Positions 7,403-35,096 are shown, numbered from the stretch's first letter. The stretch is DNA of 64,000 nucleotides from Minisyncoccota bacterium (GCA_031291875.1 JARLIE010000165.1:1119-65118), one strand, 5' to 3'. Numbers and translations: made by a program. The notes: generated from the letters alone by a model not told the origin.

Positions 7403-8974
7403 CTATACCGTATGAAGCTCGATTATGAAACGAGATCCCTTGTCCTTACCGTCGGATTCCGCCCAGATTTTGCCGCCCATGCCTTCGATGAAGGTTTTGG
7501 CTAAGTAGAGGCCCAAGCCAGTCCCTAAGAGGTTCATCTTTTGTGCATCAGCTCGCGAGAACTTTTGAAAAAGATTCGAAATGGTTTCCTGCGGAATGCC
7601 CACGCCGGTGTCCGCAACCACAACCCGTGCCATGCCATTGCGCTTTTCGATCGAGACAGTGACACCGCCCGATTTGGTGTATTTAGTGGAATTGTCGATC
7701 AGGTTGCCGACTACTTCACGGAGTTTCGCTTCGTCGGCGTAGGTCATAAGCCCTGGGAAATCTATTTTGACGTCGAGACCCAGCCCTTTTTCGCGCGCGT
7801 GCGCCTTAAAGCCTTCGCCGATGCTCGCGATGGTTTTGCCGAGATCGATTGCGGCGACGTTGTAAGAAATTTGCCCGAGCTCGAGCTTGGATTTGTTGAG
7901 GAATTCTGAAATCAGCGAAAGCACGGTGTCGCCGTTGACCTGGATCTTTTCGGCGATGTCGCGCACTTGGTCGCTCACCTCCCCTGCGGTACCGTCGGCA
8001 AGAAGCGACGCATAGCCGCGCATCGCGGTAATTGGATTGCGGATTTCATGCGAAGCGAAGGACATGAATTCCGATTTTTCGTTGGACAGCCGTTCGATTT
8101 CTTCGCGCTGCTCCACCTCTTTGACGACACTGCGAACCATGAGCACGGAAAACGCGAGCACGAGACAAAAGACGCTCGCGTGGAAAAGTATTTGGGTGCC
8201 GCCAGTGGAGAGTACGACTTCAAGGAGGGTTGCGACGGAAAGCAGGAACGCCACGACCTCGGTCGCAAGTACTTTTACGTTGAGGAGGTGGTAGCGGAAT
8301 ATCGCATAAGCGGTGCAGGCAATAAGCGGGAAAATAAACAGTGCGGAAAGCGGCAAAAAGCGCGCGTCGTTGAATCCGGCAGGCAGAATGATATTGAAGG
8401 TGACGATGCACAGGAACGTGAGAAGTGTTCCGATACACATCATCAAAACTTGTCGTCGCTCGACGTCTTTGCTATTGACGACTTTGCGCACCAAAGTGAC
8501 GATGCCGGCGATAATAAATGCAAGGACAAGGATAGCGAAGAGCGCGATGCCCGGGCCATTTTGAATTTGTGTCACGACACCGGTAGCCGAGGTTGCTTGT
8601 ACCTGATCGAAAACCAGTGGCGTGAGTGTGAGTAGCGAAGTCAGCGCAACGATCGGTATGAGCACGAATTTGTAGGTTTTCGAAAACGGCACTTGGGATT
8701 CGGGAAATACATAGCACAGTTGAAAGAACGTGAACGCGTGCCAACAACCAATGAAAATGATTGCACGTACGATCCAAAGCCCGATGAGAGACGGCGTCGA
8801 TTGGTATTGTGCGTAATTCGCTGCACTCCAGAGGATTGTAATTAGCGAGAATGCGAGAAACGTGCGATTCGTGATACTGGCCTGGTTGTTGAAATAAATC
8901 GTAAAACCTAACAGGCCGATGCCGGCGGCGGTGATCCCCACCGAAAGAAGATCGAGATTGAATGCGAATATCAT
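7403..8974 (-). CDS. Sensor histidine kinase with a polytopic (about 8 TM) N-terminal sensor domain. No adjacent response regulator.
   Basis: H-box FASHEIRNPITAMRGYASLL and a C-terminal HATPase_c region (GGVTVSIEKRNG...DTGVGIP...GTGLGL). The ORF extends to 9073; the Met at 8974 gives a 4-nt overlap with the upstream gene. Confidence 0.85.
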   Translation of the reverse strand: MIFAFNLDLLSVGITAAGIGLLGFTIYFNNQASITNRTFLAFSLITILWSAANYAQYQSTPSLIGLWIVRAIIFIGCWHAFTFFQLCYVFPESQVPFSKTYKFVLIPIVALTSLLTLTPLVFDQVQATSATGVVTQIQNGPGIALFAILVLAFIIAGIVTLVRKVVNSKDVERRQVLMMCIGTLLTFLCIVTFNIILPAGFNDARFLPLSALFIFPLIACTAYAIFRYHLLNVKVLATEVVAFLLSVATLLEVVLSTGGTQILFHASVFCLVLAFSVLMVRSVVKEVEQREEIERLSNEKSEFMSFASHEIRNPITAMRGYASLLADGTAGEVSDQVRDIAEKIQVNGDTVLSLISEFLNKSKLELGQISYNVAAIDLGKTIASIGEGFKAHAREKGLGLDVKIDFPGLMTYADEAKLREVVGNLIDNSTKYTKSGGVTVSIEKRNGMARVVVADTGVGIPQETISNLFQKFSRADAQKMNLLGTGLGLYLAKTFIEGMGGKIWAESDGKDKGSRFIIELHTV

Positions 8975-10017
8975 ACGGCGAGTAGCCCGGGAGGCTTTCT
9001 GTTCGATCGCGCGGTCGCGGGCCGGATCGGTTCCCCTATGCGCAGGAGCATGGCGATCGTCCCCTCTTTGCATTCGAAGGCGTCGTAAATCACGCGACGG
9101 GCTTCAAGAATGCGCGCCTGTACGTCCGGTTCAAGCCTGATGTTCGAACCGAGGCGTAGATACTCGGCAAGGTAGAGTAACCCGGCGAGCGGTTGCGCCG
9201 CGAAGTCATCGTTTACAACTTTGAGCCATGCGCGCTCAAACGCTCTACCTGCGCTAATGTAATCGCGAGATTCTGTTCGATCGATGCTGATCGCGACGAT
9301 CGCGCCAGAGGATGCATAAACTGCGGCATTACTCTTTGCGGCCATGGAGGCGAAGCCAATCGCGTTCAGTGCTCGCATAATCGGCCAATACTTGATGAGT
9401 TTGAAAAGAAACTGGATCGGAGGTGGTAATTCCGTGGTTTTGATATACAAACCGGGCTCGCCATTTTTGTTCTTATGCGCGTCCCATAGAATGCTCTGGA
9501 AGAAAAAATAGTGCAGCTCCTTCGTTCGCAACGCGGCCTCTTCCATCATGCTGACGGCGTTCGCGATCGCTTCAATACGTTTACGATCAGTAACAACGTT
9601 TATGTGTGCACTGCCGACTTCTAGTGCACGCAGCCCATCAAGTATCTCTTCAGAGATCTCCGTTTTATAGGCGCCTCGATTGGTGTGCCGCTTTGCAACG
9701 GCGTCGATCAGTGGATGGTTCGGGCGAATATGACCAACAAATTTCACGATTGCCGCAGCATGCGTGTCGAGCGGCGACGATACATCGCACAAGAGCCCCT
9801 CGTGTTCGGCTGCGATCAATAGGTTTTCGATTACTGCGCCGAGAGAAAGATAGGTTCCTCGAGATTCAACATTGAGGATAGCGTGATCGCGTTCCGGATG
9901 CACGAATATATCGATTTCGTCGTCGTGCGCGCGGAACGACCACGGCTGTGAGTTGTCGCCGGAGGGAGCTTGTACTGCTGCACGAAGGATGCGTTCGAGA
10001 CGATCCTGTTCGATCAT
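8971..10017 (-). CDS. Tandem nitroreductase-fold (FMN-dependent oxidoreductase-like) protein.
   Basis: N-terminal RILRAAVQAPSGDNSQPWSF (nitroreductase signature). A second half begins at KRHTNRGAY. 348 aa, about 1.5-2x the length of a single nitroreductase domain. Confidence 0.65.
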   Translation of the reverse strand: MIEQDRLERILRAAVQAPSGDNSQPWSFRAHDDEIDIFVHPERDHAILNVESRGTYLSLGAVIENLLIAAEHEGLLCDVSSPLDTHAAAIVKFVGHIRPNHPLIDAVAKRHTNRGAYKTEISEEILDGLRALEVGSAHINVVTDRKRIEAIANAVSMMEEAALRTKELHYFFFQSILWDAHKNKNGEPGLYIKTTELPPPIQFLFKLIKYWPIMRALNAIGFASMAAKSNAAVYASSGAIVAISIDRTESRDYISAGRAFERAWLKVVNDDFAAQPLAGLLYLAEYLRLGSNIRLEPDVQARILEARRVIYDAFECKEGTIAMLLRIGEPIRPATARSNRKPPGLLAV

Positions 10018-11126
10018 AATTCGAGACCAATTTTTCCGAGGAAATCTTTGCGAGCAGCTTCGCGATCCGCTCGCCCGTCGGCATAGCTGGGATCCAATAT
10101 CGCGTCGAAATTAACTTCGCATTTTGCGCTCATAAGCGGTCGCTTGAGTGCGAGCTGCTTGAGGGCGTAGGCGATCGCGACGCCAGAGAGCGTGGCGGCG
10201 TCCACCAGTTGCGGCCACGAGTAGATGGTCTTTCCCACTTCGAGCAGTGAAGACATCATACGTGGAACAATAAAACCGGGACCTGCGATTTTCGTAGCTA
10301 GTTTCGGCAGCTCCGTTGGCGGAAACGATTTGAATTCGTCGATAGTGATGTCACCGATCGCTCCGTTGAAAAGCGATGCGTTTTTATCCAGATCAAATCG
10401 ATCGGCTTCAAAGATAATGTTGTCGCCGTTATCTGTTGCCATAATGACCGGAATCCCTCGGGCGCGCGCTTCCAAGCGAAGGCGAATCTTCATCTCGAGG
10501 TTGTCTGTCTCTTCGACAAGCACGTCTATATCCGACAAGAATGCATCCATATTCTCGGCTGAGACACCGTCTGCAAATGCTTCCACGTGCGCGTACGGGT
10601 CGAGCTGATAGATGTATTCGCGCGCAAGATCGCACTTCTTGCGGCCGACGGCGAGAAAGTCAAAGCGAATGCGATTGAGGTTGGAGGGCGAAACAGTGTC
10701 TGGATCGGCGATTTTTATTCGTTGTCCGCCGCCGAGGTGGGCGAACGTAAAGAGTCCGTGGCTGCCGACGGATAATCCTGCGTAGGCGACGCGCAGTCCA
10801 TAGAGTGCCTGCTGCTCTTCGGCAGTGATGATATTTCGATTGCGCGCGGTGCGGAGCTCCAGGTGTTCGGCCTCGGGCAAGTAGTGTGCGAGCACACCGT
10901 TCCAGGGGAAGTAAAACCATTCGCCGAAGGATGGGTTTGCTCGCTTATACTCTTCCGTAAAGGCGGCAAGCTCCGCTTTGTACTCACGGACAAATTTGAA
11001 TCGCGGGTTGCGAATCAAGAAAAGATCTTCCAGTAAATCGTCGTACGCGTCTATGATGTGCGTTGGTTCGGTTCGTTCTTTAAAGGCTTCTAACGATTCC
11101 CCTGAAGGGTTATATCTCTCCGGCAT
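10014..11126 (-). CDS. E1-like adenylyltransferase (ThiF/MoeB/HesA family) with a ~90 aa N-terminal extension.
   Basis: Rossmann motif LRVAYAGLSVGSHG and ADPDTVSPSNLNRI, equivalent to the ThiF VDxDxVxxSNLNRQ region. An RxR..ITAEEQQAL lead-in resembles the MoeB/ThiF start. A C-terminal CxxC is absent. Confidence 0.7.
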   Translation of the reverse strand: MPERYNPSGESLEAFKERTEPTHIIDAYDDLLEDLFLIRNPRFKFVREYKAELAAFTEEYKRANPSFGEWFYFPWNGVLAHYLPEAEHLELRTARNRNIITAEEQQALYGLRVAYAGLSVGSHGLFTFAHLGGGQRIKIADPDTVSPSNLNRIRFDFLAVGRKKCDLAREYIYQLDPYAHVEAFADGVSAENMDAFLSDIDVLVEETDNLEMKIRLRLEARARGIPVIMATDNGDNIIFEADRFDLDKNASLFNGAIGDITIDEFKSFPPTELPKLATKIAGPGFIVPRMMSSLLEVGKTIYSWPQLVDAATLSGVAIAYALKQLALKRPLMSAKCEVNFDAILDPSYADGRADREAARKDFLGKIGLEL

Positions 11127-11153
11127 GCGGAAATTGTAGCATTTGTTTTACCG

Positions 11154-12692
11154 CTACTGAGTACGAATTACCCACTTTTGCTTGATGTCGCGACGAAAGT
11201 ACGTCGGATCCTCGTGCGGCCAAAAGAGTAGGCGGGGTATCGCGCGATCTCCCAGGAAGGTAAAGAGTTCCTGGAACTCGCCATTTTTCTCGCAAAGATT
11301 TTTGACGATCTCACTCGAGAGCTGCGCGCTGAAAGCCTGGCTTGCCTCTTTGCCATCATGCATCTCGATATTGATCTCTAAGTATTGGTCATTCGCATCG
11401 CTGAATTTCGTCATGAGTGTAAAGCGGCCGGTCAGGAATGCAGCGTATGGTTCCTGGAGCAGAGTTTCGCGAATTGTTTCGGGATAAATCTGTAAGCCGT
11501 AGAGGGTCGTGGAAAGATCCGAGCGCTCATACACGTAGACGAACGGAAGTTTCGCGAGTTTCGAATCGATTTTGTTAGCACGCATCTTCTTTTCCAAATC
11601 GATTCCGTGATTCTCGAAGATGTCGGTGATTTGCTTGAATGAAAACACCCCGCCATTATCGCCGATCGAATAGCGGCAAAGCGGCATCGCGCTGTCCCCT
11701 GTCACATACAGCTGCCCATCAACACATTCGAAATGAGTGAATTCCGACGTGTACTGGGCGAGTGTCGGCGTCTTTGAAATATCGCCAAAAAGGGCTTTAA
11801 AGAGCGCCGGTTTCTCTGCTGCGATTCGTCTTATCAAGATAGAGAGCGGCGTTTCGGCGGCCATCGTACCGAGATCAGCACTGCCGTAGATGTTCATCGT
11901 ATCGGTCAGCGGATTTTTGATGTTCGTTTTTGCAATAACGTAGTCGCGGAATTGCTCGGTGAATGCCTCGGCGGCAAATACAATACCGAACTTGTACTTC
12001 GAGAGTGAGATCCCTGTGGCGATTGCGTCGTCGATCACGTCTTTAATGAATGGCGGATAGCCGGCAAGAATAACCTGGTCGTAATTCGGAGCGAGCTGTT
12101 CAAGCGCTTTTAGAATTTCACTCTTGTTGATGCCCGGCGTTATGACGGATATCGGATGGCCTCGCCGACCCAGCAGTTGAAATGCTTGGTAGGTCAATAG
12201 CCCGCCAATCCATACACCCATACCAAAACAGACAATGATAAGCGTTGGTTTCGATTTTGAGAGCGAGCTTTGTAGAAAAAATCGCTCGTGAATTAACGCC
12301 GATTGCTCATCCACGGTAAATGAGCGCGCGAAGTAAAACGGCTTTCCTGTGGAACCTGACGTCGAGGTCATGACGTGCGGTACAGCAAGCGTGCCTCCCC
12401 AAAATAGTTCCTTGTAGGGATACGCGCGCAAGTAGGAGTCCTTACTCATGACCGGCACTCGGTCGAGTTCGGCATCATTCTTTATGGTTGCCGCAACAAT
12501 AGAGCGGCTCTTGAGGAATTTTTTGTATGCCGGCACTTCAGCCGCCATCCGCTTGAAAAGACTCAAAACGGGGGAGGGGCTTTCCTGAAGCGTTTTCGTA
12601 GCGACCGGCTTCTTTTTTGGAGCTAGTGTTCGACTCATACTGACGGAGAAATTATAACACGGATACTGCCTCCTTGTCGAGTACCTGCTCAA
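11154..12692 (-). CDS. Adenylate-forming enzyme of the phenylacetate-CoA ligase / coenzyme F390 synthetase / CapK family.
   Basis: P-loop-like AMP motif MTSTSGSTGKPFYF. PaaK-like N-terminal region (VPAYKKFL...DRVPVMSKDSYLRAYP). 512 aa; the true start may be the internal Met (MAAEV...). Confidence 0.65.
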   Translation of the reverse strand: MSRYSTRRQYPCYNFSVSMSRTLAPKKKPVATKTLQESPSPVLSLFKRMAAEVPAYKKFLKSRSIVAATIKNDAELDRVPVMSKDSYLRAYPYKELFWGGTLAVPHVMTSTSGSTGKPFYFARSFTVDEQSALIHERFFLQSSLSKSKPTLIIVCFGMGVWIGGLLTYQAFQLLGRRGHPISVITPGINKSEILKALEQLAPNYDQVILAGYPPFIKDVIDDAIATGISLSKYKFGIVFAAEAFTEQFRDYVIAKTNIKNPLTDTMNIYGSADLGTMAAETPLSILIRRIAAEKPALFKALFGDISKTPTLAQYTSEFTHFECVDGQLYVTGDSAMPLCRYSIGDNGGVFSFKQITDIFENHGIDLEKKMRANKIDSKLAKLPFVYVYERSDLSTTLYGLQIYPETIRETLLQEPYAAFLTGRFTLMTKFSDANDQYLEINIEMHDGKEASQAFSAQLSSEIVKNLCEKNGEFQELFTFLGDRAIPRLLFWPHEDPTYFRRDIKQKWVIRTQ

Positions 12693-13704
12693 TGGCCCCT
12701 ACAACTGCCGCCATATGCTCCGGTGCCGGGATCGCGAAACGCAGCGTTTCGCGCAGTAGTTCCTTCGCCGTATCGTCCCATGTCTTTCGCTCCCCCGCGC
12801 TCACTCGTATGCCAGCACTTGCCAAGGATTCGCAAATTTCATTTGCACGAGAATGGCGAGTCAAAATAAAATTACAAGACGATGGATAGACGAGCAGGTG
12901 AGGAAAGCGAGCAAGCGCCGTTGCGAAAACAGCACGCTGCTCGATGATGAGTGCTTTGCGCTGCTGGAGCTCACTAACTCGAGAAAGGACTATGTTTGCC
13001 GCATAGACGCTCGGCCCCGGAATGATCCAGGGCAAGGTGCCAAATAGATCTGAACGTAGTTCTTCAGCGATTTCGCGGCTCGTGATGGCGTATCCGACCC
13101 GAATCCCGGGGACGCCGAATGCTTTGGATAATGTACGCAGCACGATAACCGGTTGCTGCGCAACGGCTTGCAGAGCGCTCGAGCCTCCATATTCACCGTA
13201 GGCCTCATCACTAACGACTAACACACCGACCTCACGGGCTGCTGAGAGTATCTGGGAAAACGCACTATCTCCTAACGTGCTGCCGAGCGGATTGTTGGGT
13301 TCGCACAAGAACACAACGTCGACTTCCTTGTTGCGGATGCATTGTAGGGTTTCTTCGAGCGGAAATACGAATGTCCCGTCTTGCTCGCGGTAGTACAAGC
13401 GCACCGTTTCGAGCGGCGTCTCCATCAATACTTTTTCATAGCCGGAAAAGGTCGGCAAAATGAGGAGCGTGCGATAGCGACGCTTCGCGCAATACCGAAC
13501 GGTGGCTCGAATGGCTTCGTCAGAACCAGGTGTTAAGCACACGCTCTCTTGCGGAACGCCGGCGTACGTCGCGATATTTGCCGTGAGCTCGTCGTAGGAT
13601 GGATAGGTGGAGAACGCGGAGCGCGGCATGTTGCGCAAGAGCGCAAGCGTGTCGTCGTCGAGTAACCAATAGCTCTCGTTCAGATCGAGCGGAATGATTT
13701 CCAT
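12652..13704 (-). CDS. PLP-dependent class I/II aminotransferase (HisC/CobD-like).
   Basis: LDLNESYW start region, CEPNNPLG motif, and LRTLSKAFGVPGIRVGY (PLP lysine). The ORF extends to 13836; the Met at 13704 gives a 4-nt overlap with the upstream gene. Confidence 0.75.
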   Translation of the reverse strand: MEIIPLDLNESYWLLDDDTLALLRNMPRSAFSTYPSYDELTANIATYAGVPQESVCLTPGSDEAIRATVRYCAKRRYRTLLILPTFSGYEKVLMETPLETVRLYYREQDGTFVFPLEETLQCIRNKEVDVVFLCEPNNPLGSTLGDSAFSQILSAAREVGVLVVSDEAYGEYGGSSALQAVAQQPVIVLRTLSKAFGVPGIRVGYAITSREIAEELRSDLFGTLPWIIPGPSVYAANIVLSRVSELQQRKALIIEQRAVFATALARFPHLLVYPSSCNFILTRHSRANEICESLASAGIRVSAGERKTWDDTAKELLRETLRFAIPAPEHMAAVVGAIEQVLDKEAVSVL

Positions 13705-13706
13705 GA

Positions 13707-14195
13707 TCACGATCTGGCAAATGCGATACCGATATAGGCAACAATCAGCCACCAGAGCTCGTAGGAGGATCCGAAAATATTCTGTGTTTGCGAGCTGAAG
13801 TGCCAAATGGACGCGAGTGATCCGACCTGCATCCAAATACAGACGAGCACGACCGTCGTTGAAACGCCGACGAGAATTCCTGCAAGCGGAGAGCTCGATT
13901 CGGAAAAGCTCATAGTTGCTCGAATGAAAAGTATGAGCAGGATGATTTCAATCGCTAGGAAGACGAGTGCTTGTGGCAACCCGGCGTGGAATTGGCGCAC
14001 GATTGAGCCGAGCAAAAACGCGTTCGGTGCAACCGAAAAGAGAGTCACCGCTACGGGAAGCGAGAGCGAAAGCGCTGTGGCGATACTGGTGCCGCGCAGC
14101 ATGCTGAAAATAGTAATAAGAATGGCGATCGAACCGATAATGATCCAATCCGAAGGAACCCCGGAGGCAATCTGGGTCATCGACTGAAAATCCAT
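13707..14195 (-). CDS. Small polytopic membrane protein (about 4 TM), unknown function.
   Basis: 162 aa, hydrophobic throughout. It starts 9 nt downstream of the dnaJ stop. Confidence 0.5.
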   Translation of the reverse strand: MDFQSMTQIASGVPSDWIIIGSIAILITIFSMLRGTSIATALSLSLPVAVTLFSVAPNAFLLGSIVRQFHAGLPQALVFLAIEIILLILFIRATMSFSESSSPLAGILVGVSTTVVLVCIWMQVGSLASIWHFSSQTQNIFGSSYELWWLIVAYIGIAFARS

Positions 14196-14204: not shown

Positions 14205-15278
14205 TTATAACCCCTCCTTTCGTAGCTCTTCGATCGCTTCTTTTGCTTTGCGGGATAACTTCTTCGGGAATTGTATGTCGATGCGAACCATGAGGTCGCC
14301 GCGACTGCCGCGACCGTACGGAATGCCTTTGCCACGCACTCGAATGAGCTCGCCGTGTTCGACGCCTGCTGGTACGTTGATTTTTTCTTCACCGTCCAAT
14401 GTTGGAATAGTGTAGGTGCCGCCCAAAAGCGCGTCGCTGAGCTTGACCGAAAGCGACGTCGTGAGCGTGTTGCCGTCACGGGTGAATCGCGTGTCTTTGC
14501 GAACGTGGAGCTTTACATACAGATCGCCCGCGCTTCCTGCGGAAGTGGCTTCTCCTCTCCCCGGCATGCGAATCATTTCTCCGTCGTCGACACCGGCTGG
14601 AACGACAATGTGAATCTCCTCTTCGCGCTTCGCGATACCCTCTCCGTGGCAATGTTCGCACGGGGTCTCTGGCACCTCGCCCTTGCCTTTGCAGCGCGGA
14701 CACAAGCGCTCTTGGGTGAATGTCCCGAAGAGAGAGTTGCGTGTTTCGCGGATCGAGCCCTTGCCATTGCAGCTGGTGCACGTGGTCATCTTAGAACCCG
14801 ATTTTGCTCCCGTGCCCGCACACACCTGACAAACCCCCATCTTGGAGATAAGTACGCGACGTTCGGTACCGAAAACAGCCTCCTTGAACGAAAGCTCAAT
14901 ATCGATGGATATATCACGTCCGCGATTGGCGCGTTGCCCACCTTGACCGAAGAATTCAGAGAAAATGTCACCGAGATCAAACTCGAACGCTTGACCGTTG
15001 CCGCCAAATCCCGCGCCGAACGGCGCTCCTTGGGAGAAGTCGAAACCTCCGAAGCCTTGCCCGCCGCCTCCGGCGAATGTCTTGCCGTAGGTGTCGTATT
15101 CGGCCCGCTTCTTTTTGTCTGAAAGGACAGCGTAGGCTTCGCTTGCTTCTTTGAACTTTGCCTCGTCGCCACCTTTTTTGTCTGGGTGATATTTTTGAGC
15201 AAGCTTGCGAAATGCTTTCTTGATTTCTTCCTCGGTAGCGCTTTTCGGAACCCCGAGAATGTCGTAGTAGTTTTTCAT
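14205..15278 (-). CDS. dnaJ: Chaperone DnaJ (Hsp40).
   Basis: J-domain (YYDILGV...HPDK), a G/F-rich linker, and four CxxCxGxG zinc-finger repeats. Confidence 0.92.
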
Positions 15279-15350: not shown

Positions 15351-17219
15351 TTATTGTTGCGGGGGCGTTTGGTCTTGGGGCGGCTGCTCGCCTTGGTTAC
15401 CTCCGGTGGAAGAACCACCTTGGCCGGACATCGACTGTCCGATCGTGCTCATTGCGCTTGAGAGCTGTTCGGACGCAGTTTTGATCGCGTTTGCGTCCGT
15501 GCCATTGCGAGCCGCTTTCGCAGCATCAAGCTTTTCCTGCACGTTCTTTTTGATGTCTTCGCTCACTTTATCGCCATATTCGCGGAGCGCTTTCTCTGCC
15601 GCATAGATGTTTTGGTCGGCGCTATTTTGCGCCTCTACCAACTCTTTCTTTTCGCGGTCGGTGTCGGCGTTTTTCTCAGCATCTTGGCGCATTTTTTCGA
15701 TATCGGTTTCCGAGAGACCGGAAGAGCCTTCGATGCGGATGGACTGTTCTTTACCGCTCGTCTTGTCCTTTGCCTTGACGGTGAGGATGCCGTTCGCGTC
15801 GATGTCGAAGGTTACCTCAACCTGCGGAACTCCTCGTGGAGCCGGCGGAATGCCGTCCAAATTGAAACGTCCGAGTGATTTGTTGTCTGCAGCCATCGGG
15901 CGCTCTCCTTGCACGACGTGGATCTCAACAGACGGTTGATTGTCGGCAGCAGTTGAGAAGACCTGTGACTTCGCTGTCGGAATAGTGGTGTTGCGTTCGA
16001 TAAGGCGTGTGGCGACGCCGCCCATCGTCTCGATACCCAGCGAAAGCGGGATCACGTCGAGAAGCAATACGTCCTTTACGTCACCCTGCAAAATGCCGCC
16101 TTGGATTGCCGCGCCGATAGCAACAACTTCATCAGGGTTGACGCTCATGTTGGGCTTTCGGCCGAAGTATTCCTGCACGGCTTTTTGAATCGCGGGCATG
16201 CGAGTCTGTCCACCCACGAGGATGATCTCGTTGAGTTCACCGACCTTAAAAGGCGATGCGTCGATCGCGCGCTTCGTGATCATGAGCGCCCGCTCGACGA
16301 ACTCGCGGGAGAGCTCTTCGAGCTTTGCGCGGGTGAGTTTGACAAGGAGATGCTGAGGACCGGCAGCGGTGGAGGTAATGAACGGAATGTTCACCTCTGT
16401 TTCGAGTGCGCTCGAGAGTTCGATCTTTGCTTTCTCCGCGGCTTCGTCGAGTCGCTGACGCGCGAGAGGATCAGTGCGCACATCGATGCCGGATTCCTTT
16501 TTGAATTCATCGGCGAGCCAATCCATGATCTTTTGGTCGATGTCTTTGCCACCCAAGTGCGCGTCACCGTCGGTCGATCGCACCTCGATCACATCGTCTC
16601 CCACCTCCAAGACGGAAATGTCGAACGTACCACCGCCGAAGTCGAAGACGGCAATCTTTTCGTTCTTCTTTTTGTTGAAACCGTACGCGAGCGCGGCGGC
16701 TGTCGGTTCGTTGATGATGCGCTTAACGTCGAGGCCGGCAATTTTTCCGGCGTCGCGGGTCGCCTGACGCTGGGTGTCGTTGAAGTAGGCAGGGACTGTG
16801 ATCACTGCTTCTGTAACAGTTTCGCCAAGGCGCGCTTCTGCGTCTTGCTTCAGTTTCTGTAAAATCATCGCGGAAACCTCTTCCGGGCGGTACCATTTGT
16901 CCGCCATCTTGACCTCGATACCGCTGTTATCCGTCTTCCTGACTTCAAACGGAATAGATTTGATGTCTTTTTGCACACCCGCCTCGTCAAAGGTGTGCCC
17001 AATGAAGCGCTTTATTTGGTAGATGGTGTTTTGCGGATTGGTCACTGCTTGTCGGCGCGCCAATTGACCAACAAGTCGCTCACCACCCTTAGAGATGGCG
17101 ACGATCGACGGTGTCGTGCGTCCACCCTCTGCGTTTTCGATGATATGAGGCTCACCTCCCGTGACATATGCCACTGCGGAGTTGGTTGTGCCCAGATCGA
17201 TACCGATGATTTTAGCCAT
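15351..17219 (-). CDS. dnaK: Chaperone DnaK (Hsp70).
   Basis: [18 protein letters not shown] and the full 622 aa Hsp70 architecture. Confidence 0.95.
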
Positions 17220-17345: not shown

Positions 17346-17888
17346 TTATTTTTTTACGATGACTTGCGCTGGGCGCAGAACACGCTCCCCTATTTTGTAA
17401 CCGTACCGCATGATCCTGAAGACGGTTCCAGGTTCGCCGGGCACTTCTTCGGTCTCTTCGACGGCCTCGTGCTGCCGGTGATCGAACTTCTCTCCAGCTT
17501 TGCCGAATCGTTCTATGCCATTTCGCGCGAGTGCATCCAAAATTTGATTGCGGATGAGATCGACACCGGTTCTCCATTCTGGAGCAACTGACTCCCAAGT
17601 CGGGGAACCTGCCGCCATATCGAATCCGTCGAGGGCCGGCAAAAGGTCTTCGACAAAAGATTCAACTGCACGTTCGCCGGTACGTTTTGCTTGATGTAAA
17701 AGTTCTTGCCGTGAATTTACCATGTCGGCCTTGGCGCGTTGCCAGCCGTCGAGGTATTCCTGGCGCTCCTTCTTCGCTTTCTCGAGCTCGTCCCGGAGTT
17801 TTTTAAGTTTGGCTTTCGCAGCACCGACGTCCCCAAGCTCGTCCTCGGGTTCGAAATCTATATCTTCCCTTTCGAGATCGTCGTTCAT
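17346..17888 (-). CDS. grpE: Nucleotide exchange factor GrpE.
   Basis: 180 aa with a coiled-coil N-terminus and a GrpE C-terminal domain (…VFRIMRYGYKIGERVLRPAQV…). Immediately upstream of dnaK. Confidence 0.85.
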   Translation of the reverse strand: MNDDLEREDIDFEPEDELGDVGAAKAKLKKLRDELEKAKKERQEYLDGWQRAKADMVNSRQELLHQAKRTGERAVESFVEDLLPALDGFDMAAGSPTWESVAPEWRTGVDLIRNQILDALARNGIERFGKAGEKFDHRQHEAVEETEEVPGEPGTVFRIMRYGYKIGERVLRPAQVIVKK

Positions 17889-22033: not shown

Positions 22034-23494
22034 TTATTGGGAGGCCGCAGGCGGTTCGACGACCACGCTGATGTCTGAAGGATTGGCCGGAAAGGTTGTT
22101 TTCCAGAAAGGCTCGATACGAGCATGGGCCTGCTGGATGCCCGGGAAGCTGCTTGTAATCGTCGTGAAGGCGTTTTGGTCGTGCCCTGCGAGGTCTGAGG
22201 CGAGTGCCACCGTATCGACTTGCCAGACGAGCGTACCGGTACCCGCAAGTTGGAAGCTAAAGGGATCGGTACCGAGCGTCGAGGACGCTTCGGTAATGCC
22301 TTGGGCCGCAAACTTTGCTCCGGGGATGAATGCAAGTGGAACATCCGCAGAGGTTTCCCCGGCATTTGCAGCGAGCGCCTGTGTGAAGGAAGCAAGATCA
22401 AGAACGGGAGTCTGGATAGTTGCTTGTTCATTGATCTGTACGCTGCCGTTCGCTGCAGGTGTGTTGGGTAGGTCTTGATAGGTAATTTGTGTCAATCCCG
22501 GCAGAAGGATCGTTGAAGTGCCATTTTGTGCAGCAAGCGCTGTTTGCGCCTCTTGAGAGAGCTGGCTCTGGAGCGCAGCGCGCGTACTGCTCAAGGTCGT
22601 CGGGTCGACAGCTGCCTGCGTGCCCGAGTAGCCCCCTGTCGTCGAGGCGGTCGATTGTGCGTAGATGTTCGAAAACATAGCCGGTGTCGATTGCAGGCCC
22701 GGGACGGTAAAGCGAGAAACTGCGGAAATGTTGTATTGCTGGCCTGGCTGATCGGCTACGATCGTCGTTGAAATGTGCCCAGGAGTCGTTCCTGACTTGC
22801 CCGGAACAACAACAGCAGTAGGGATGCGGAAAATGAGACCGTTCGGAGTCTCGAAACGAGTATTGGCGATCAATTTGACGGGCCCAGTCGAGTAATCATT
22901 GTAGACAGTGATATTTCCCTGCGCTCTGGTTTCAACATCTTGAGTTCCTTGCGCCTGAACCGTCTTCGATGCTTGGAGGCTGGAGCTTACCAGGGTGTAG
23001 GCGATGGTGTTCGGCGTGTTGTCGGCCGCCGGATAGGCGGTGAATTGAGAGGTTTGATCAAACGTGATGACGTGCGAGCGAGGAATCACCGTAACCGTTG
23101 TCTTTCGAAAGGCAAAGAGTGCGAGGCCGGCAAGCAGCACGATGAGAATGAATGCCACAATCCATGGCCACCAACGGAACGTCTTCGGTCGCTTCGGCTT
23201 GGGCGGAAGCGGCGGAACACCGAAGTCGGATGGATTTCGCTGATCGTTCACCGCAGGTCGTGAGGGTCTCGAAATGCGCTGAGGAGCATTGATATTTCGA
23301 ATACTTCGCTCGGGTGTCGGAACCTCTTCTTCCACTACTTCGTCCTCGGGCTCATCTTGTGGCTCGGGAGACGGAGGCGGGGTTACTTTGCGAGGCGCTG
23401 GTGCTGCGTTTACCCGAACGGCGCGGCGCGGCGCGTCATCCGGCGGTGTGATGTCTTGAAAATAGTCTTTTGCCATAAATCGGAAGTATATCAC
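22034..23494 (-). CDS. Hypothetical membrane-anchored protein with a Pro-rich cytoplasmic N-terminus and a large Ser/Thr/Gln-rich extracytoplasmic domain.
   Basis: 486 aa with a single TM (WWPWIVAFILIVLLAGLALFAF). No recognisable catalytic motifs. It occupies the position usually held by secY/adk/map upstream of infA. Confidence 0.45.
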   Translation of the reverse strand: MIYFRFMAKDYFQDITPPDDAPRRAVRVNAAPAPRKVTPPPSPEPQDEPEDEVVEEEVPTPERSIRNINAPQRISRPSRPAVNDQRNPSDFGVPPLPPKPKRPKTFRWWPWIVAFILIVLLAGLALFAFRKTTVTVIPRSHVITFDQTSQFTAYPAADNTPNTIAYTLVSSSLQASKTVQAQGTQDVETRAQGNITVYNDYSTGPVKLIANTRFETPNGLIFRIPTAVVVPGKSGTTPGHISTTIVADQPGQQYNISAVSRFTVPGLQSTPAMFSNIYAQSTASTTGGYSGTQAAVDPTTLSSTRAALQSQLSQEAQTALAAQNGTSTILLPGLTQITYQDLPNTPAANGSVQINEQATIQTPVLDLASFTQALAANAGETSADVPLAFIPGAKFAAQGITEASSTLGTDPFSFQLAGTGTLVWQVDTVALASDLAGHDQNAFTTITSSFPGIQQAHARIEPFWKTTFPANPSDISVVVEPPAASQ

Positions 23495-28596: not shown

Positions 28597-28851
28597 CTAC
28601 CGAACGCCTTCGTCGAAAAGAATCTCGTGTTTTCTTTCAATACCACCGCGATTGTAACCTCGCATACTGCCGTCACTCGCGATGACGCGGTGGCACGGGA
28701 TCGAAGGATCGTAGTTGGAGCGCATAACTGCGCCGACGGCTCGCGCTGCTTTCGGATTACCCGCTCTCGTCGCTACTTCTTTGTAGGTCATCGTCTTCCC
28801 TTTGGGAATTTTTCGGACGATGTCGCGGACTTTGTCTGCAATAGTTTTCAT
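28597..28851 (-). CDS. Stand-alone O6-alkylguanine-DNA alkyltransferase C-terminal (DNA-binding/active-site) domain protein.
   Basis: IPCHRVI active-site motif and an MGMT-type helix-turn-helix. The ~84 aa form starts at the internal Met with a 4-nt overlap; the ORF extends to 28962. Confidence 0.65.
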   Translation of the reverse strand: MKTIADKVRDIVRKIPKGKTMTYKEVATRAGNPKAARAVGAVMRSNYDPSIPCHRVIASDGSMRGYNRGGIERKHEILFDEGVR

Positions 28852-29663
28852 ATACCGAGTGTTGCGCGCTGATCCGGTTGTTCCATCGCCTGCTTCTTTG
28901 CCTTCGCTTGGAATGGGATCAACTTCTTGCCCACTGCTTCGCGGTAGCGGCAGTAATCGCAATCTGCAGACGACTCGGGCAACTCGTCGCTATCTAAACA
29001 AGTCTTAATTGCGACCAGCGTTCCTTCAACCCACGAATCGTCGCCGCTGTACGGAATAAGCGTAAGTTCGAACTCGAGCTTTCCGTCGAACGCCTCTTTG
29101 TCTTTGCTGGCATTTGCATATACCCAGTAGCCTGTATTTGAAACCGTAAATCCATTCTGGCGCAAAAGCCACTGATAGACCTCGATCTGGCGCTTGTAAC
29201 CGTCGTGCCAGGCTTCGTCGAGCGATTCTATTTTTCCATCCTTGCTCGTAGCCTTGTAGTCGACTACGATTAATTCATCGTTGGGCGTTACCCAGATATC
29301 GTCGACGCCGCCGCAGACAGTGAGTCCGGTGTGGTGTTCGCAGACTATGCCGCCGCGCAGCGAGTCGCGCCACTCGTCCATTTGTGTATGGGCGAATGGA
29401 ACGGCGTCGAGCCCGTAGGCTTTCATCAGCGGGTGTGCCGATTTTGCGGCACGATGCGCGTCGAATTCTTTTTTAAGGAGCGCGTCGACTGCCGAGTTGA
29501 GGTTAAAAGGAAAACCCGGCGGCCGAGCCGTGCCGAGCTTGTTGTCGATATAAAAGCAGCGCTTGCAGTCCAAGAAAAGCGAGATTTTCGAACGCGAAAG
29601 ACGGAAATGTTTGCCGCCGTAGTTCCAATTGTGGTTGCGGTCGGGCTTGTAGTAACCACTCAT
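28848..29663 (-). CDS. Cas4-like / RecB-family PD-(D/E)xK nuclease with a predicted 4-Cys iron-sulfur cluster.
   Basis: N-terminal CKRC, central ...VVDYKATSK (D-x-K of PD-(D/E)xK) and a C-terminal CDYCRY. 271 aa. No CRISPR context. Confidence 0.6.
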   Translation of the reverse strand: MSGYYKPDRNHNWNYGGKHFRLSRSKISLFLDCKRCFYIDNKLGTARPPGFPFNLNSAVDALLKKEFDAHRAAKSAHPLMKAYGLDAVPFAHTQMDEWRDSLRGGIVCEHHTGLTVCGGVDDIWVTPNDELIVVDYKATSKDGKIESLDEAWHDGYKRQIEVYQWLLRQNGFTVSNTGYWVYANASKDKEAFDGKLEFELTLIPYSGDDSWVEGTLVAIKTCLDSDELPESSADCDYCRYREAVGKKLIPFQAKAKKQAMEQPDQRATLGI

Positions 29664-30220
29664 CGCGTGAGTATACCACTCCCTCCATTTTGACGCTCAA
29701 AATCACTCTCAATTGAGCCTTCGTGCGCCGCAAACCAATGCTTAAAACGATTTTCTATGTACCACATGCCGGTGAGAACAATGAGCGTTAGCAACGCGGA
29801 AAAGACAGAAACAGAGTACATGCCAAAACCAACCGCCATACCGATTGCCGTTGCAATCCAAAGGCACGCCGCAGTGGTGACTCCATGAACCGTGTCGCCC
29901 CGGAAAATAATCAATCCAGCGCCGATAAAACCGATGCCCGTCACGATACCGGGCGCGAGTTGAAGCGGCTGGATATTGACGACGCCTAGATAAACGCTGT
30001 CGACGTAGTTGGTAATCAGAATGAAAAGGCAGGCGCTCATCGCGACGAGTCCGAACGTGCGCATGCCGGCAGGCTGACGAGCGAATAATGCTCGTTCGGT
30101 ACCTATGATGCCTCCCAAAAAGAGCGCGAGCATCAACTTCACAAACATAACGGCAGTAGGATCGATGAGAAGCGCGGGTCCCGTTATCATAGGCAAAAGT
30201 ATATCATTCAAATACCGCAC
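29660..30220 (-). CDS. mgtC: MgtC/SapB-family membrane protein.
   Basis: 186 aa; 4-5 TM with the MgtC-like N-terminal conserved region (...GGIIGTERALFARQPAGMRTFGLVAMSA...). Confidence 0.7.
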   Translation of the reverse strand: MRYLNDILLPMITGPALLIDPTAVMFVKLMLALFLGGIIGTERALFARQPAGMRTFGLVAMSACLFILITNYVDSVYLGVVNIQPLQLAPGIVTGIGFIGAGLIIFRGDTVHGVTTAACLWIATAIGMAVGFGMYSVSVFSALLTLIVLTGMWYIENRFKHWFAAHEGSIESDFERQNGGSGILTR

Positions 30221-31032
30221 AAGAGGCGTGCCTCATCGAGTACTTTCGGGACCCGATCGGGCTTTACTCCGTATTCTTGCAGGAGGTGCGAGGTCGTCAC
30301 GCTTTTGCAGAGCACAACCTTATTGTCGAGTAATCGTCGTTTCTCGCCCTCACTGAGGGAGGTGAGGCAGGTGATCGGATGCACTTTTCCCTCTTCGATC
30401 ATCGCGAGTAGGCCTCGAGTGCGGGGATAATCCCAGCCCAAGAGAGTGAGGTTTGAACAGCGAGCGTACCGAATTGCATTTCGAGTGAACGTGGTATTCG
30501 TAACCAGCCAGCCTTCGTCGACGCGCGACGAAGCAAGTGGCGCCTGACGGAGGTCGTCGTAGCGCGCTTTGACGTAGAGCGCATCTTTGACGTCAGTCTT
30601 CCCTCCCGGGTCGTTGTGAAATTTTGCCTCGATGCCGATGCGTCTGCCCTGTTTTTCTGCGAGTACATCCACCTCATGAGAAACGCAGCGGCCGGTAAGT
30701 GTTACCTCTGCTTTCGCGCTCCAGCCGTTCGAACGCAGGACTTCGGCAAGAAACGATTCAAACGGGTAGCCAGAGGGGCCCAGCGCGAAGACCGCTCGCT
30801 TGATTGAATAGCGGGCGGCGACCGGCGGAACTTCTTCGTTCTTTAGCGTTTCGAATGCGTGGCGATAGATATCTTCCGTACGTACTCCCGGGTGAATCTC
30901 ACTGAGAACTTTCGCGAGAACACGCGCGCGTGCCGTCGAAGATGCACCGGCGAGCTGCAGTGAGTGTTCAAGCTTTGCCGGATCAAACGGCTCCTGTGTT
31001 CCATCTGCCTTGGTAATAAGAGGATGCGTCAT
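30208..31032 (-). CDS. ATP-cone domain fused to a restriction-endonuclease-like (Mrr_cat-type PD-(D/E)xK) domain.
   Basis: N-terminal ITKADGTQEPFDPAKLEHSL...EDIYRHAFETL is ATP-cone-like. The C-terminal region contains EVDVLAEK...RIGIEAKF (D...E-x-K). The ORF extends to 31194; the internal Met gives a 4-nt overlap. Confidence 0.55.
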   Translation of the reverse strand: MTHPLITKADGTQEPFDPAKLEHSLQLAGASSTARARVLAKVLSEIHPGVRTEDIYRHAFETLKNEEVPPVAARYSIKRAVFALGPSGYPFESFLAEVLRSNGWSAKAEVTLTGRCVSHEVDVLAEKQGRRIGIEAKFHNDPGGKTDVKDALYVKARYDDLRQAPLASSRVDEGWLVTNTTFTRNAIRYARCSNLTLLGWDYPRTRGLLAMIEEGKVHPITCLTSLSEGEKRRLLDNKVVLCKSVTTSHLLQEYGVKPDRVPKVLDEARLLCGI

Positions 31033-31445
31033 AGCGATGATGAAGAAGCAGCGACGTCGGTGATGATGGTTATCGGCAAAGGCTTTCCGTCGAGTGTCGC
31101 TACAAATTGAACGCCTGTTGCCGGCGCAAGCGCAACCGCCTGAAATGCTCGCGGCGCCGGCGCTTTCGGACAATCGATAGAGGGATCTTGCCAACTCTGA
31201 AACGCGAGCAAATATTCGGTATCGGAAACTTTCTGCGTGGCCACACTAAGCTCGTCACAGGAAAGCGGCAATACCAGTATGCCACTCAAACTGTGCGTTC
31301 CCGGAGTTACGATGTCGTGGATAGCGAGTACGCCGGGATTTTGCGCTTGCAAAAGGGCGAAGTTTCCAAGAACAACGAATATCGCAAAGAAGGCCGCGGT
31401 CGCGACGATAGCGAACCAGACGAGTCGTCGGACCGTGTCCATCAT
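31029..31445 (-). CDS. Hypothetical membrane-anchored protein.
   Basis: Single N-terminal TM (LVWFAIVATAAFFAIFVVLG) followed by a soluble domain. Start inferred at MMDTV. Confidence 0.4.
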   Translation of the reverse strand: MMDTVRRLVWFAIVATAAFFAIFVVLGNFALLQAQNPGVLAIHDIVTPGTHSLSGILVLPLSCDELSVATQKVSDTEYLLAFQSWQDPSIDCPKAPAPRAFQAVALAPATGVQFVATLDGKPLPITIITDVAASSSSL

Positions 31446-33611: not shown

Positions 33612-35096
33612 TTATTTGGGAAGATTCGCGGGAGCTGCCGATTTGGTGGACGGAATGCGCTCCAGACCCGGTGCTTGGACTGTTGCGGACGGCGGATGCC
33701 AGAGAGTAGCCAGTTCTTCGACTGTCAAAATCGAGCTTGGGAAAACCCACGGCGTATGGAATCCAGCGCGACGTCGGTAGACATCAAAAAATCTCCTGGG
33801 CATCAATACATTGCGTCTATATCCATGAAAATCCTGCCACGGGTAATCGAAGGGATTGCCCCAACGCTGCGGTCGAAGGTATGACATATACGTTGGGTTG
33901 CCATAGGGCTTCCAGATCCAGCGAAGGCTCGTGAAATACGGGCCCCGCGGCTGACCGGTCGTGATATAGACGCCGTGGCCGATGAACTCAAACGGCAATT
34001 TGCTGACGTTTCGTTCCATCGATTGCATGATCTGATTTTGCATCCAGGACGGTCTTGGTTGCGGTTGTCGTCCGCTTCCCTCGTGAGCTCCGGACGTTTG
34101 CAGTTCGTGTTGGACCGCCTCAAGCGCTTGCTGCGAAACAATCGCGCCGCGCGATCGCCATTTGTCGACTTCGTCTTTGGTCGCTTTGCGCCAGTCGTCG
34201 TCGCGATCACCTGTACTGAGAATGCCGTACTTGCCACCGCGTCGAATGACCAGCGAGATCCAGGCCTGTTCTTGTGGTTGAATCGAGCTCATGAATTCGA
34301 TAATGGTCGAAAGCGGGTCGACCTTGTGCTCTTCTTTCGGGTCTTTATCGAGCTCGTAATCAATGTAAGTACGTAGCGGATAACAGTCGATGCGGTCGAA
34401 CTTGCCATCGCCGTATTTGCCAAATTTTCCCTGGGGCAATTTGCTCCAGTCGGTTGGGAAGCACCAGTGTTTGTCCGGATCATATTTGAATTTGGACGCG
34501 TAATCTTCGACTTCGTACAATTCGACTTCCGGATACTGGCCGTAGATTGCCTGTTCGACGAATTCCTTCATCGATCCCCAGCACCAGATATAAAAATGAA
34601 CATCGCCGCCGAAGCTCGCGATCTCAAAAGCAAAGAAAGGGCGTACCTGTCCCTTCCAGGCGCGGTCCAAAAAGCTCGCCTCACCGGAAGAGAGCCAAAG
34701 GTTGGTGAGTGCAACCTCCATCGCGCGTGGTGATTTCGTAATGTCTCGCGGGACCTTCATCTCGAGCAATACCGGCTTGCGTCCTGCGAGAAAAAGGGAT
34801 TGCACATACCACACCCAGATTCGGAACGCCCCAATAACGAGAACAACCGGCGTCCACACGGGCGCCGTTCCTACCATCCATTCGAACGCAAAGAGCGGCA
34901 AGTTAGGAATCTCAAGCGATAAAATGCTCAAAAGTCCCAAAAAAAGAATAACGAGGATAAGCGCGCGCGAAACTCCCCACTCGCCGAGCCAATCGACGAA
35001 TTCGTGGAGATTAAAAATGTTGAAGCCGACTGTTTTTTTTCCGACTTTTTCACCAAGTTCGCCGAGAAAAGTCTCTTCACCGTGCCCGCCTGACAT
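33612..35096 (-). CDS. Hypothetical protein with N-terminal TM helices and a large Trp/Tyr-rich domain.
   Basis: 494 aa. No motif I can assign. Confidence 0.4.
   Translation of the reverse strand: MSGGHGEETFLGELGEKVGKKTVGFNIFNLHEFVDWLGEWGVSRALILVILFLGLLSILSLEIPNLPLFAFEWMVGTAPVWTPVVLVIGAFRIWVWYVQSLFLAGRKPVLLEMKVPRDITKSPRAMEVALTNLWLSSGEASFLDRAWKGQVRPFFAFEIASFGGDVHFYIWCWGSMKEFVEQAIYGQYPEVELYEVEDYASKFKYDPDKHWCFPTDWSKLPQGKFGKYGDGKFDRIDCYPLRTYIDYELDKDPKEEHKVDPLSTIIEFMSSIQPQEQAWISLVIRRGGKYGILSTGDRDDDWRKATKDEVDKWRSRGAIVSQQALEAVQHELQTSGAHEGSGRQPQPRPSWMQNQIMQSMERNVSKLPFEFIGHGVYITTGQPRGPYFTSLRWIWKPYGNPTYMSYLRPQRWGNPFDYPWQDFHGYRRNVLMPRRFFDVYRRRAGFHTPWVFPSSILTVEELATLWHPPSATVQAPGLERIPSTKSAAPANLPK

Follow-up and report, generated by a model that had tools for sequence, protein, structure and literature searches.

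The fused enzyme TrzS (Rv1355c) converts N-acyl-tryptophan to N-acyl tryptazolone by an ATP-dependent cyclization and a subsequent O2-dependent desaturation (PMC12856293). Cyclization is lost when the conserved adenylation Asp is mutated, and R540 and Q651 of the M. smegmatis enzyme are oxidase residues shown to matter (PMC12856293). The split pair TyzB/TyzC and the fused OxzB carry out the same reactions on N-acyl-Tyr/Phe (PMC10404671; bioRxiv 10.1101/2020.06.11.147165). All described clusters for oxazolones or N-acyl-dehydrotyrosine include an N-acyl amino acid synthase, named OxzA, TyzA, TrzA or NasY (PMC10404671, PMC12856293, PMC12479983). According to a 2025 review, this is the only case of ThiF-like chemistry on a small molecule (PMC12596934). 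Here we describe a gene cassette with a related enzyme pair in a 64,000-nucleotide stretch of Paceibacterota DNA (the window; GCA_031291875.1, JARLIE010000165.1:1119-65118) from the Candidate Phyla Radiation (CPR, or Patescibacteria). The cassette encodes a pyridoxal phosphate (PLP)-dependent aminotransferase, a PaaK-like adenylate-forming ligase, a ThiF-like protein, a nitroreductase-fold oxidase and a seven-transmembrane (7TM) sensor histidine kinase.

The ThiF-like protein and the oxidase match consecutive parts of one model, NF005901 of the 'Rv1355c family'. Residues 12-351 of the former align with model positions 27-341 of 722 (3e-75) and the latter covers positions 373-713 (2.4e-47). The oxidase also matches NF011424 (9.2e-51), the Acg family NF047509 (8e-39) and Acg itself (PDB entry 2ymv, 1.6e-7). 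ThiF-oxidase concatenates from the window and nine CPR loci were aligned with fused Rv1355c-family proteins from Rhodococcus and Mycobacterium plasmids, and the concatenate is collinear with the fused proteins from end to end.

The N-terminal extension of the ThiF-like protein (~95 residues), with its WxYxPW and RxxRNxNxI..EQ motifs, is common to the Rv1355c family. In the alignment the GLSVG loop, D141, D143, N149, N151, R152, K164 and D208 do not vary, and CPR and actinobacterial proteins both carry the ADxD....SNLNR and G..K motifs. GLSVG is a family-specific nucleotide loop. D208 corresponds in the alignment to the Asp of the E. coli MoeB DN motif (D130-type). In the oxidase, APSGxNxQPW, RxxNR and a C-terminal Arg are invariant compared with the fused actinobacterial proteins. 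The AlphaFold2 model of the ThiF-like protein has a mean predicted local distance difference test (pLDDT) score of 90.3, the extension adopts a beta-alpha-beta-alpha-alpha-alpha-beta-beta-alpha topology and the top Foldseek match is AclA (9egb). The protein is identical to the database entry P0121.

Judged from the model matches and this alignment, the ThiF-like protein and the oxidase are the two halves of the fused Rv1355c/TrzS family enzyme. By architecture and motifs the pair belongs to the oxazolone-synthetase kind, with the oxidase as the proposed C-alpha/C-beta desaturase. Fused ThiF-oxidase genes, as in TrzS and OxzB, are found at two CPR loci. The initial annotation of the window did not recognize the combination of genes. 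This is correct for the set as a whole: open-access papers and bioRxiv contained none linking CPR bacteria or Parcubacteria to oxazolones, ThiF, nitroreductases, N-acyl amino acids or this gene set. The E1-like and nitroreductase-fold pair, on the other hand, corresponds to a described family.

TrzAS of M. tuberculosis, M. smegmatis and Rhodococcus jostii (PMC12856293) resembles the CPR pair over the full length of TrzS, including the extension and the GLSVG, Asp and flavin mononucleotide (FMN) motifs. It differs in its host, a mycolic-acid actinobacterium. Furthermore, in the CPR cassette the ThiF-like protein and the oxidase are separate genes, the TrzA-type acyl-CoA (coenzyme A)-dependent N-acyltransferase is absent, and the pair is linked to a 7TM histidine kinase, a PaaK-like ligase and either an aminotransferase or a dehydrogenase. 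Separate, adjacent genes with short or overlapping junctions also occur in TyzACB of M. tuberculosis (Rv2336-Rv2338c; N-acyl tyrazolones; PMC10404671). The clusters of ThiF, nitroreductase and NasY genes in Stieleria, Thalassotalea and Massilia (PMC12479983) likewise have separate, adjacent ThiF and oxidase genes, in Stieleria accompanied by methyltransferases. An N-acyl amino acid synthase is part of all of these, but not of the CPR cassette. OxzAB of Pseudoalteromonas rubra (bioRxiv 10.1101/2020.06.11.147165) is likewise a small operon with ThiF-nitroreductase chemistry on N-acyl aromatic amino acids; its OxzB is fused and paired with the acyltransferase OxzA, and the system is reported only from alpha-, beta- and gamma-proteobacteria. 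The CPR system fails one defining feature of oxazolone systems, the N-acyl amino acid synthase, and the PaaK-like ligase holds that position. It adds three conserved partners to the ThiF/oxidase pair.

A ThiF-like protein with the same extension is encoded on a plasmid of Streptomyces sp. NBC_01426 (L089, 5920-7694; 32% identity over 95% of the window protein). A GNAT gene (Acetyltransf_3) comes directly after its gene and overlaps it by 4 nt, and the oxidase is absent. This is an uncharacterized variant in which ThiF is combined with an acylating enzyme.

The ligase has no Pfam match. The PaaK model TIGR02155 matches weakly and in the N-terminal half only (2.6e-10; 39.4 bits versus a cut-off of 646.3). 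The AlphaFold2 model (pLDDT 84.7) shows a PaaK-type ANL fold, and Foldseek ranks PaaK1/PaaK2 (~2e-21) and BT_0428 on top. The next matches are ClxA, 2-hydroxyisobutyryl-CoA ligase, 6siw ('PaaK family AMP-ligase') and McbA, which is named an amide-bond synthetase in its PDB entry. Non-CoA ligases are among these structural neighbors, namely McbA, ClxA (9s45) and 6siw, in line with the CoA-independent role proposed below. PaaK1/2, ClxA, 6siw and McbA resemble the CPR ligase in their two-domain ANL/PaaK architecture (Foldseek 1.7e-21 to 1e-11) and in having all of the adenylation motifs. They differ from it in sequence (13-18% identity), and the CPR ligase, which no Pfam model matches, forms a tight family of its own.

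The ANL motifs TSTSGSTGKP, YG(S) and GD as well as R372 and K486 are invariant in 24 homologues of the ligase. Therefore, it should adenylate a carboxylate. The window protein is 100% identical to a hypothetical protein from a Candidatus Pacebacteria metagenome-assembled genome (MAG; P0001), where it is encoded on a 74.8-kb contig. The family is compact: of 1.84 billion representatives, 517 clusters at 50% identity belong to it (E<=1e-30). We propose the ligase as the signature gene of the cassette and as a CoA-independent N-acylating (amide-forming) enzyme.

A scan covering one genome per species yielded at least 600 pattern matches, and at least 585 species genomes encode a relative of the ligase. 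Nearly all of these are titled Patescibacteria/CPR. The best 80 loci are titled as Patescibacteria-type MAGs (Paceibacterota, Kaiser-, Magasanik-, Lipton-, Wildermuth- and Staskawicz-bacteria, and others), with the exception of one record titled Gammaproteobacteria. Open reading frames (ORFs) of 83 loci were clustered, hidden Markov models (HMMs) were built from the clusters, and a census was taken over 79 species loci. In the 49 species loci flanked by 2.5 kb or more upstream and 5.5 kb or more downstream, the ThiF-like gene is always on the same strand as the ligase gene (49/49). The oxidase gene accompanies it in 47 and the HisKA_7TM kinase gene in 44, and all three are present in 44 of the 49.

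At least four gene orders occur: ligase-ThiF-oxidase-kinase, ligase-oxidase-ThiF-kinase, oxidase-ThiF-X-ligase-kinase and oxidase-X-ligase-ThiF-hydrolase-kinase. The genomic context varies as well and includes the dnaK operon and the enolase/pyruvate phosphate dikinase region, among others. Since the members persist while order and context vary, the block travels as a unit. The same-strand recurrence of the ligase-ThiF-oxidase-kinase block in dozens of species-level genomes and in different contexts also places the arrangement far beyond chance. A GC-rich (66%) distant homologue of the ligase (P0383, locus L091) does not have a ThiF-like gene beside it.

In the window the cassette follows the grpE-dnaK-dnaJ operon, and a fusion to this operon had been part of the initial annotation. 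This description is accurate for the window but not in general, as the dnaK operon is adjacent in only 16 of the 79 species loci. The link to the dnaK operon is lineage-specific. Conservation of the block in related genomes had been named as a check as well and is seen for ligase, ThiF, oxidase and kinase. It does not extend to the small membrane protein encoded between dnaJ and the aminotransferase gene, which is found at dnaJ-adjacent loci only.

Some loci contain further genes. An extra ORF is located between oxidase and kinase in L013, L018, L021, L026, L027, L034, L042 and L083, and one follows the ThiF-like gene in L065, L066, L082 and L092. A weakly methyltransferase-like ORF (~310 residues) is present at nine loci and an alpha/beta-hydrolase (~290 residues) at a few, each before the kinase gene. 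These optional enzymes could tailor the product or open an oxazolone ring. In L001-L004 (6169-6906) the cassette is immediately preceded by an ApbE flavin-transferase gene, which in L005 (2237-2977) is located ~5 kb upstream of the ligase gene. ApbE was rejected as a cassette member: its adjacency is not conserved across the loci, so it is treated as coincidental.

The aminotransferase carries the PLP-lysine motif SKAFG. It scores 177 bits with the hisC model (cut-off 276) and 164 bits with the CobD model (cut-off 290). The closer relatives of the window, 11 species loci, have a HisC-like aminotransferase gene directly upstream of the ligase gene. At 27 species loci this slot is occupied by an enzyme of the Glu/Leu/Phe/Val-dehydrogenase family, for which the best named match is the tryptophan dehydrogenase ScyB (3.3e-91). 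Either gene lies 2-76 nt upstream of the ligase gene, and they never co-occur. Among the 49 well-flanked loci, eight have the aminotransferase, 20 the Leu/Phe/Trp-type dehydrogenase and none has both. Two unrelated enzymes that share their chemistry replace each other in one slot, and thus the step is an interconversion of amino acid and 2-oxo acid. The aminotransferase is an accessory, replaceable supply step.

Natural fusions connect these enzymes directly. Among the long proteins of an exhaustive search of representatives, Pfam assignments identified dehydrogenase-ligase (847 residues), ligase-ThiF (863 residues), ThiF-ligase (880 residues) and dehydrogenase-ligase-ThiF (1242 residues) fusions in other CPR genomes (P0261, P0266, P0334 and P0359, the last being the triple fusion). 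Two independent assemblies contain the triple fusion (L092, 8001-11729; L093, 819-4547), whose sequence is continuous across the junctions. This fusion is flanked by the oxidase gene upstream and by genes for an alpha/beta-hydrolase and the 7TM kinase downstream. The fusions are strong evidence that dehydrogenase, ligase and ThiF-like protein act consecutively. Together with the co-conserved block they bear out the earlier assumption that the genes act together.

The 7TM histidine kinase was at first regarded as a mere neighbor of the cassette. Its presence at 44 of 49 loci identifies it as a core co-conserved member instead, and it retains its place where the gene order is rearranged. A hydropathy scan of the kinase shows eight hydrophobic segments. 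Receiver-only response regulators are adjacent at some loci (19 by ORF clustering, 11 in a stricter same-strand HMM census). The papers found to mention the HisKA_7TM domain give no ligand for it. The coupling of the kinase to the enzymes suggests sensing or feedback control, which is the weakest link of the model outlined below.

Taken together, the cassette probably encodes a CoA-independent route to an oxazolone or dehydro-amino-acid metabolite that is genetically coupled to a sensor kinase. We assign a probability of roughly 0.55 to this reading. The aminotransferase, or the dehydrogenase in most other lineages, would interconvert an amino acid, hydrophobic or aromatic, with the corresponding 2-oxo acid and thereby supply one building block. 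The sequence is compatible with both directions, so the compound supplied could be the amino acid or, serving as acyl donor, the 2-oxo acid. The ligase would then adenylate a carboxylic acid and attach it at an amino acid's alpha-amino group; the resulting N-acyl amino acid would form without a CoA thioester. The acid could be an arylacetate, a 2-oxo acid or a scavenged fatty acid, between which the sequence does not decide.

The ThiF-like protein would adenylate the free alpha-carboxylate of the N-acyl amino acid, and the amide oxygen would close the 5(4H)-oxazolone ring. The FMN oxidase would desaturate the C-alpha/C-beta bond, which would yield an unsaturated oxazolone, or an N-acyl dehydro-amino acid if the ring opens afterwards. 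The translationally coupled kinase may sense the product or control its production. We infer the chemistry of supply, ligation, cyclization and desaturation, the identity of acid and amino acid and the role of the kinase, like all functions given here for CPR proteins, from homology and gene arrangement.

The formation of an oxazolone from an acid and an amino acid without CoA needs two successive ATP-dependent activations of a carboxylate, which matches the presence of both the ligase and the ThiF-like protein. An amino-acid-derived small molecule made with two such activators had already been suggested for the window, and the TrzS-family pair and the ANL ligase agree with it. The conserved ORFs of the 83 clustered neighborhoods include neither an N-acyl amino acid synthase nor a GNAT type, and a non-exhaustive scan of the window ORFs found no such synthase. 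To our knowledge, CPR bacteria mostly lack fatty-acid and CoA biosynthesis; a loss of the acyl-CoA-dependent synthase would thus be understandable.

Several observations weigh against this reading. The NF005901 scores of the ThiF-like protein (254 bits) and the oxidase (162 bits) add up to less than the cut-off of 476, which is defined on the fused 722-residue protein. With PaaK the ligase shares only 16-18% identity, and judged from sequence the acceptor could be an amine, CoA or another compound. In 21 of the 49 well-flanked loci neither the aminotransferase nor the dehydrogenase is located beside the ligase. An N-acyl amino acid synthase may be encoded elsewhere in these genomes. The electron acceptor of the oxidase may differ from O2, because the characterized oxidases use O2 and many of the MAGs come from groundwater. 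Finally, the 64-kb window contains no response regulator.

The same enzyme logic could serve another substrate or ring, e.g. two amino-acid-derived units joined by the ligase and closed by ThiF to a diketopiperazine-like or other lactam or lactone ring, which the oxidase would dehydrogenate, or the C-terminus of an envelope component or peptide, in formal terms an N-acyl amino acid too. ThiF-like enzymes are known to make many ring types (PMC12596934), and the CPR ThiF-like protein has diverged from the actinobacterial family members (31-38% identity), with an insertion of ~19 residues within the N-terminal extension. Moreover, nitroreductase-fold oxidases also desaturate cyclodipeptides (AlbA-type). 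The Rv1355c/TrzS family is, however, the closest by far, at 3e-75 compared with 1e-23 for the next model. The dehydrogenase or aminotransferase fits a 2-oxo acid or amino acid as building block better than a peptide or protein, and no precursor or carrier gene is conserved nearby. We consider such a product unlikely.

It is quite unlikely, too, that the pathway is the canonical one, in which a PaaK-like acid-CoA ligase feeds an acyltransferase encoded elsewhere and ThiF-like protein and oxidase work as in TyzACB or TrzAS. The nearest solved structures of the ligase are indeed CoA ligases (PaaK1/2, BT_0428 and 2-hydroxyisobutyryl-CoA ligase), and acyl-CoA is used by all characterized oxazolone systems (PMC10404671, PMC12856293). 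The ligase is always present, though, while an acyltransferase is conserved in 0 of the 83 neighborhoods. Direct fusion of ligase and ThiF-like protein in several genomes argues for consecutive steps, and the usual lack of fatty-acid and CoA biosynthesis in CPR bacteria points in the same direction.

E1-like and nitroreductase-fold proteins co-occur in azoline-forming systems for peptides that are made by ribosomes and modified after translation (RiPPs), and the initial annotation compared the pair with the C and B proteins of thiazole/oxazole-modified microcins (TOMMs). The E1-like protein would bind a precursor through its extension and the oxidase would act as TOMM 'B' dehydrogenase, or the two would modify a peptide C-terminus. 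RiPP recognition element (RRE) domains are present at the N-terminus of RiPP ThiF enzymes (PMC12596934). With TOMM/LAP (linear azole-containing peptide) maturases, which consist of an E1-like C protein, a YcaO D protein and a SagB-type B dehydrogenase, and with MccB/PaaA-type RiPP ThiF enzymes the cassette shares an E1-like fold beside a nitroreductase-fold flavoprotein and the N-terminal extension of the E1-like protein. The CPR cassette differs from both in having no YcaO, precursor peptide or TOMM match and in the catalytically intact ThiF-like protein.

None of the six cassette-region proteins matches a SagB-type, TOMM-cyclodehydratase or YcaO NCBIfam model at E<=0.01, in agreement with the earlier remark that YcaO is missing. 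The junctions from dnaJ to trpS measure 27 nt at most; as stated before, they leave no room for a precursor peptide or a ThiS/MoaD-like ORF. Beyond the known members, the conserved same-strand ORF clusters of at least 45 residues in the 83 loci consist of the response regulator only; shorter peptides were not searched. The active site of the ThiF-like protein is intact, unlike that of the degenerate TOMM docking proteins. The extension had been likened to the peptide clamp of MccB or to an RRE. It is instead a feature of the Rv1355c family and is shared with TrzS, a small-molecule enzyme. Foldseek alignments with MccB and PaaA span a core of ~255-282 residues and leave the extension unaligned, although with the whole model as query a remote similarity is not strictly excluded. 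The pair belongs to the TrzS family, so E1-like and nitroreductase-fold proteins are explained without RiPP machinery. RiPP or peptide maturation is accordingly very improbable, and the TOMM/RiPP reading was rejected for lack of a model match, a YcaO protein and space for a precursor, and for the active ThiF site.

An ordinary primary pathway, i.e. sulfur-carrier or cofactor biosynthesis (thiamine, molybdopterin, cobalamin) or salvage of aromatic amino acids, is largely refuted already and has hardly any probability left: homologues are annotated as 'molybdopterin/thiamine biosynthesis adenylyltransferase' or 'phenylacetate-CoA ligase' and the aminotransferase resembles HisC and CobD, but the scores for the ThiF, MoeB, HisC, CobD and PaaK equivalogs are all far below their cut-offs (ThiF/MoeB 41-61 bits versus 152-450), a ubiquitin-like small ThiS/MoaD-like gene is absent, CxxC zinc motifs are missing from the ThiF-like sequence, the conserved neighbors do not include an indolepyruvate or 2-oxoacid oxidoreductase and no his or cob genes are near the aminotransferase gene. 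A characterized, commonly annotated pathway, which had been named as the outcome that would overturn the first interpretation, is therefore not what these scores and missing partners indicate.

The proposed CoA-independent route would extend ThiF/oxidase chemistry to hundreds of CPR species. So far, oxazolones have been found in Proteobacteria, Actinobacteria and Planctomycetes, and only together with an acyl-CoA-dependent synthase. The PaaK-like ligase is a candidate for a new activity, CoA-independent N-acylation, which the fusions with ThiF-like protein and dehydrogenase back. CPR bacteria are otherwise regarded as nearly devoid of secondary metabolism. With its 3-5 genes the system is small, and it is widespread and experimentally tractable; the 7TM sensor kinase to which it is constantly linked provides a receptor-ligand pair that can be tested. 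A more far-reaching proposal, which we regard as doubtful, is a self-contained signaling module (quorum or host sensing) in which CPR bacteria, largely devoid of lipid and CoA metabolism, make an oxazolone or dehydro-amino acid by the CoA-free route with two adenylations and read it with the dedicated 7TM kinase of the operon. The physiological role of bacterial oxazolones has been stated as an open question (PMC12856293; bioRxiv 10.1101/2020.06.11.147165). If true, the module would provide the first such role and the first receptor, specific to an ultrasmall episymbiotic radiation.

The positions of the cassette and its neighbors in the window are listed in the table. The minus-strand series runs from grpE, dnaK and dnaJ through a four-transmembrane (4-TM) protein gene and the cassette to trpS, aspS, scpA and scpB.

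Table. Features of the cassette region, with positions counted from the first letter of the window.
Feature	Position	Strand	Remark
grpE	17346-17888	-	upstream chaperone gene
dnaK	15351-17219	-	upstream chaperone gene
dnaJ	14205-15278	-	directly before 4-TM gene
small 4-TM membrane protein, 162 aa	13707-14195	-	no family match
HisC/CobD-like class I/II PLP aminotransferase, 350 aa	12652-13704	-	PF00155 4.9e-36; ATG at 13704
promoter-like site TCGACA-18 nt-TGTTATAAT, upstream TG	12651-12680	-	consensus match
PaaK-like adenylate-forming ligase, 494 aa	11154-12638	-	fold from AlphaFold2 and Foldseek; ATG at 12638
ThiF-like ATP-dependent cyclase (predicted)	10014-11126	-	PF00899; NF005901 N-terminal half
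Acg-like duplicated nitroreductase-fold oxidase	8971-10017	-	NF005901 C-terminal half
7TM sensor histidine kinase (HisKA_7TM + HisKA + HATPase_c), 523 aa	7403-8974	-	PF16927, PF00512, PF02518; ATG at 8974

The ORF calls confirm the five minus-strand ORFs (8971-14195) that had been described after grpE-dnaK-dnaJ, and every earlier domain call was reproduced by Pfam/NCBIfam profile searches or by AlphaFold2 and Foldseek. The junctions were read directly in the sequence with start codons that are backed by homologues. Gaps of 9 nt (dnaJ to 4-TM gene), 2 nt (4-TM gene to aminotransferase), 13 nt (aminotransferase to ligase) and 27 nt (ligase to ThiF) are followed by two 4-nt ATGA overlaps, from ThiF to oxidase and from oxidase to kinase. 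Thus, the 9-nt gap, the 4-nt overlaps and the kinase start codon at the stop of the oxidase gene are as initially annotated; the 40-nt overlaps are an artifact of TTG starts in longest-ORF calls. No prominent terminator-like signal is present within the minus-strand series.

A sigma-70-like promoter-like site that agrees with the consensus at 11 of 12 positions is located 13 nt ahead of the ligase ATG, where it falls within the aminotransferase gene at its 3' end. Its hexamers are retained in the nearest relative (L008). Matches of at least 10/12 are found upstream of the ligase gene in 6 of 74 loci, compared with 0.8% of random 70-nt windows. Across the region, the total number of promoter-like matches is not above the shuffled expectation. 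The site may be a candidate internal promoter of the core cassette. Transcription from it would give a nearly leaderless core-cassette transcript that is independent of the dnaK operon.

The 4-TM protein has four hydrophobic segments and neither a Pfam nor an NCBIfam match, and a word-indexed database search returned three relatives. Its HMM detects homologues in 10 of the 16 dnaJ-adjacent species loci and in none of the 63 others. By hydropathy, 12 of the 18 loci that have a dnaJ match (17 fetched loci and the window) show an ORF of ~160 residues with 4-5 TM segments after dnaJ. Because it is detected only where the cassette follows dnaJ, the protein is not a core member, and on this ground it was rejected as a core exporter or immunity factor of the cassette. 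It may be part of the chaperone operon or have been added in a particular lineage.

Elsewhere in the window, a large serine recombinase gene (42408 to ~43980; Resolvase and Zn_ribbon_recom) abuts a tRNA-Ala gene (43983-44054) on the opposite strand. Two tRNA-Pro genes are located at 38198-38381, and the region 39103-42084 encodes an HTH_11 protein and Ser/Thr-rich or secreted-looking hypothetical ORFs without family match. The stretch 38198-44189 may be a small integrated element. Two long ORFs, of the 'dark' kind typical of CPR bacteria, are not matched by any Pfam model at E<=0.01: one of 494 residues with N-terminal hydrophobic segments (33612-35096, minus strand) and one of 486 residues with a Pro-rich N-terminus followed by a TM segment (22034-23494, minus strand). 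Positions 28848-29663 and 30208-31194 (minus strand) encode a PD-(D/E)XK nuclease-family protein and, close to it, a restriction-endonuclease-like protein with ATP-cone and Mrr_cat domains; an MgtC-family gene separates the two. Fused ATP-cone and Mrr domains are an unusual combination. Finally, two MreB-like paralogues, assigned by eye, lie within 5 kb of each other (49646-50905 and 54344-55360, minus strand), near genes for MreC-like, PBP2 and RseP-like proteins.

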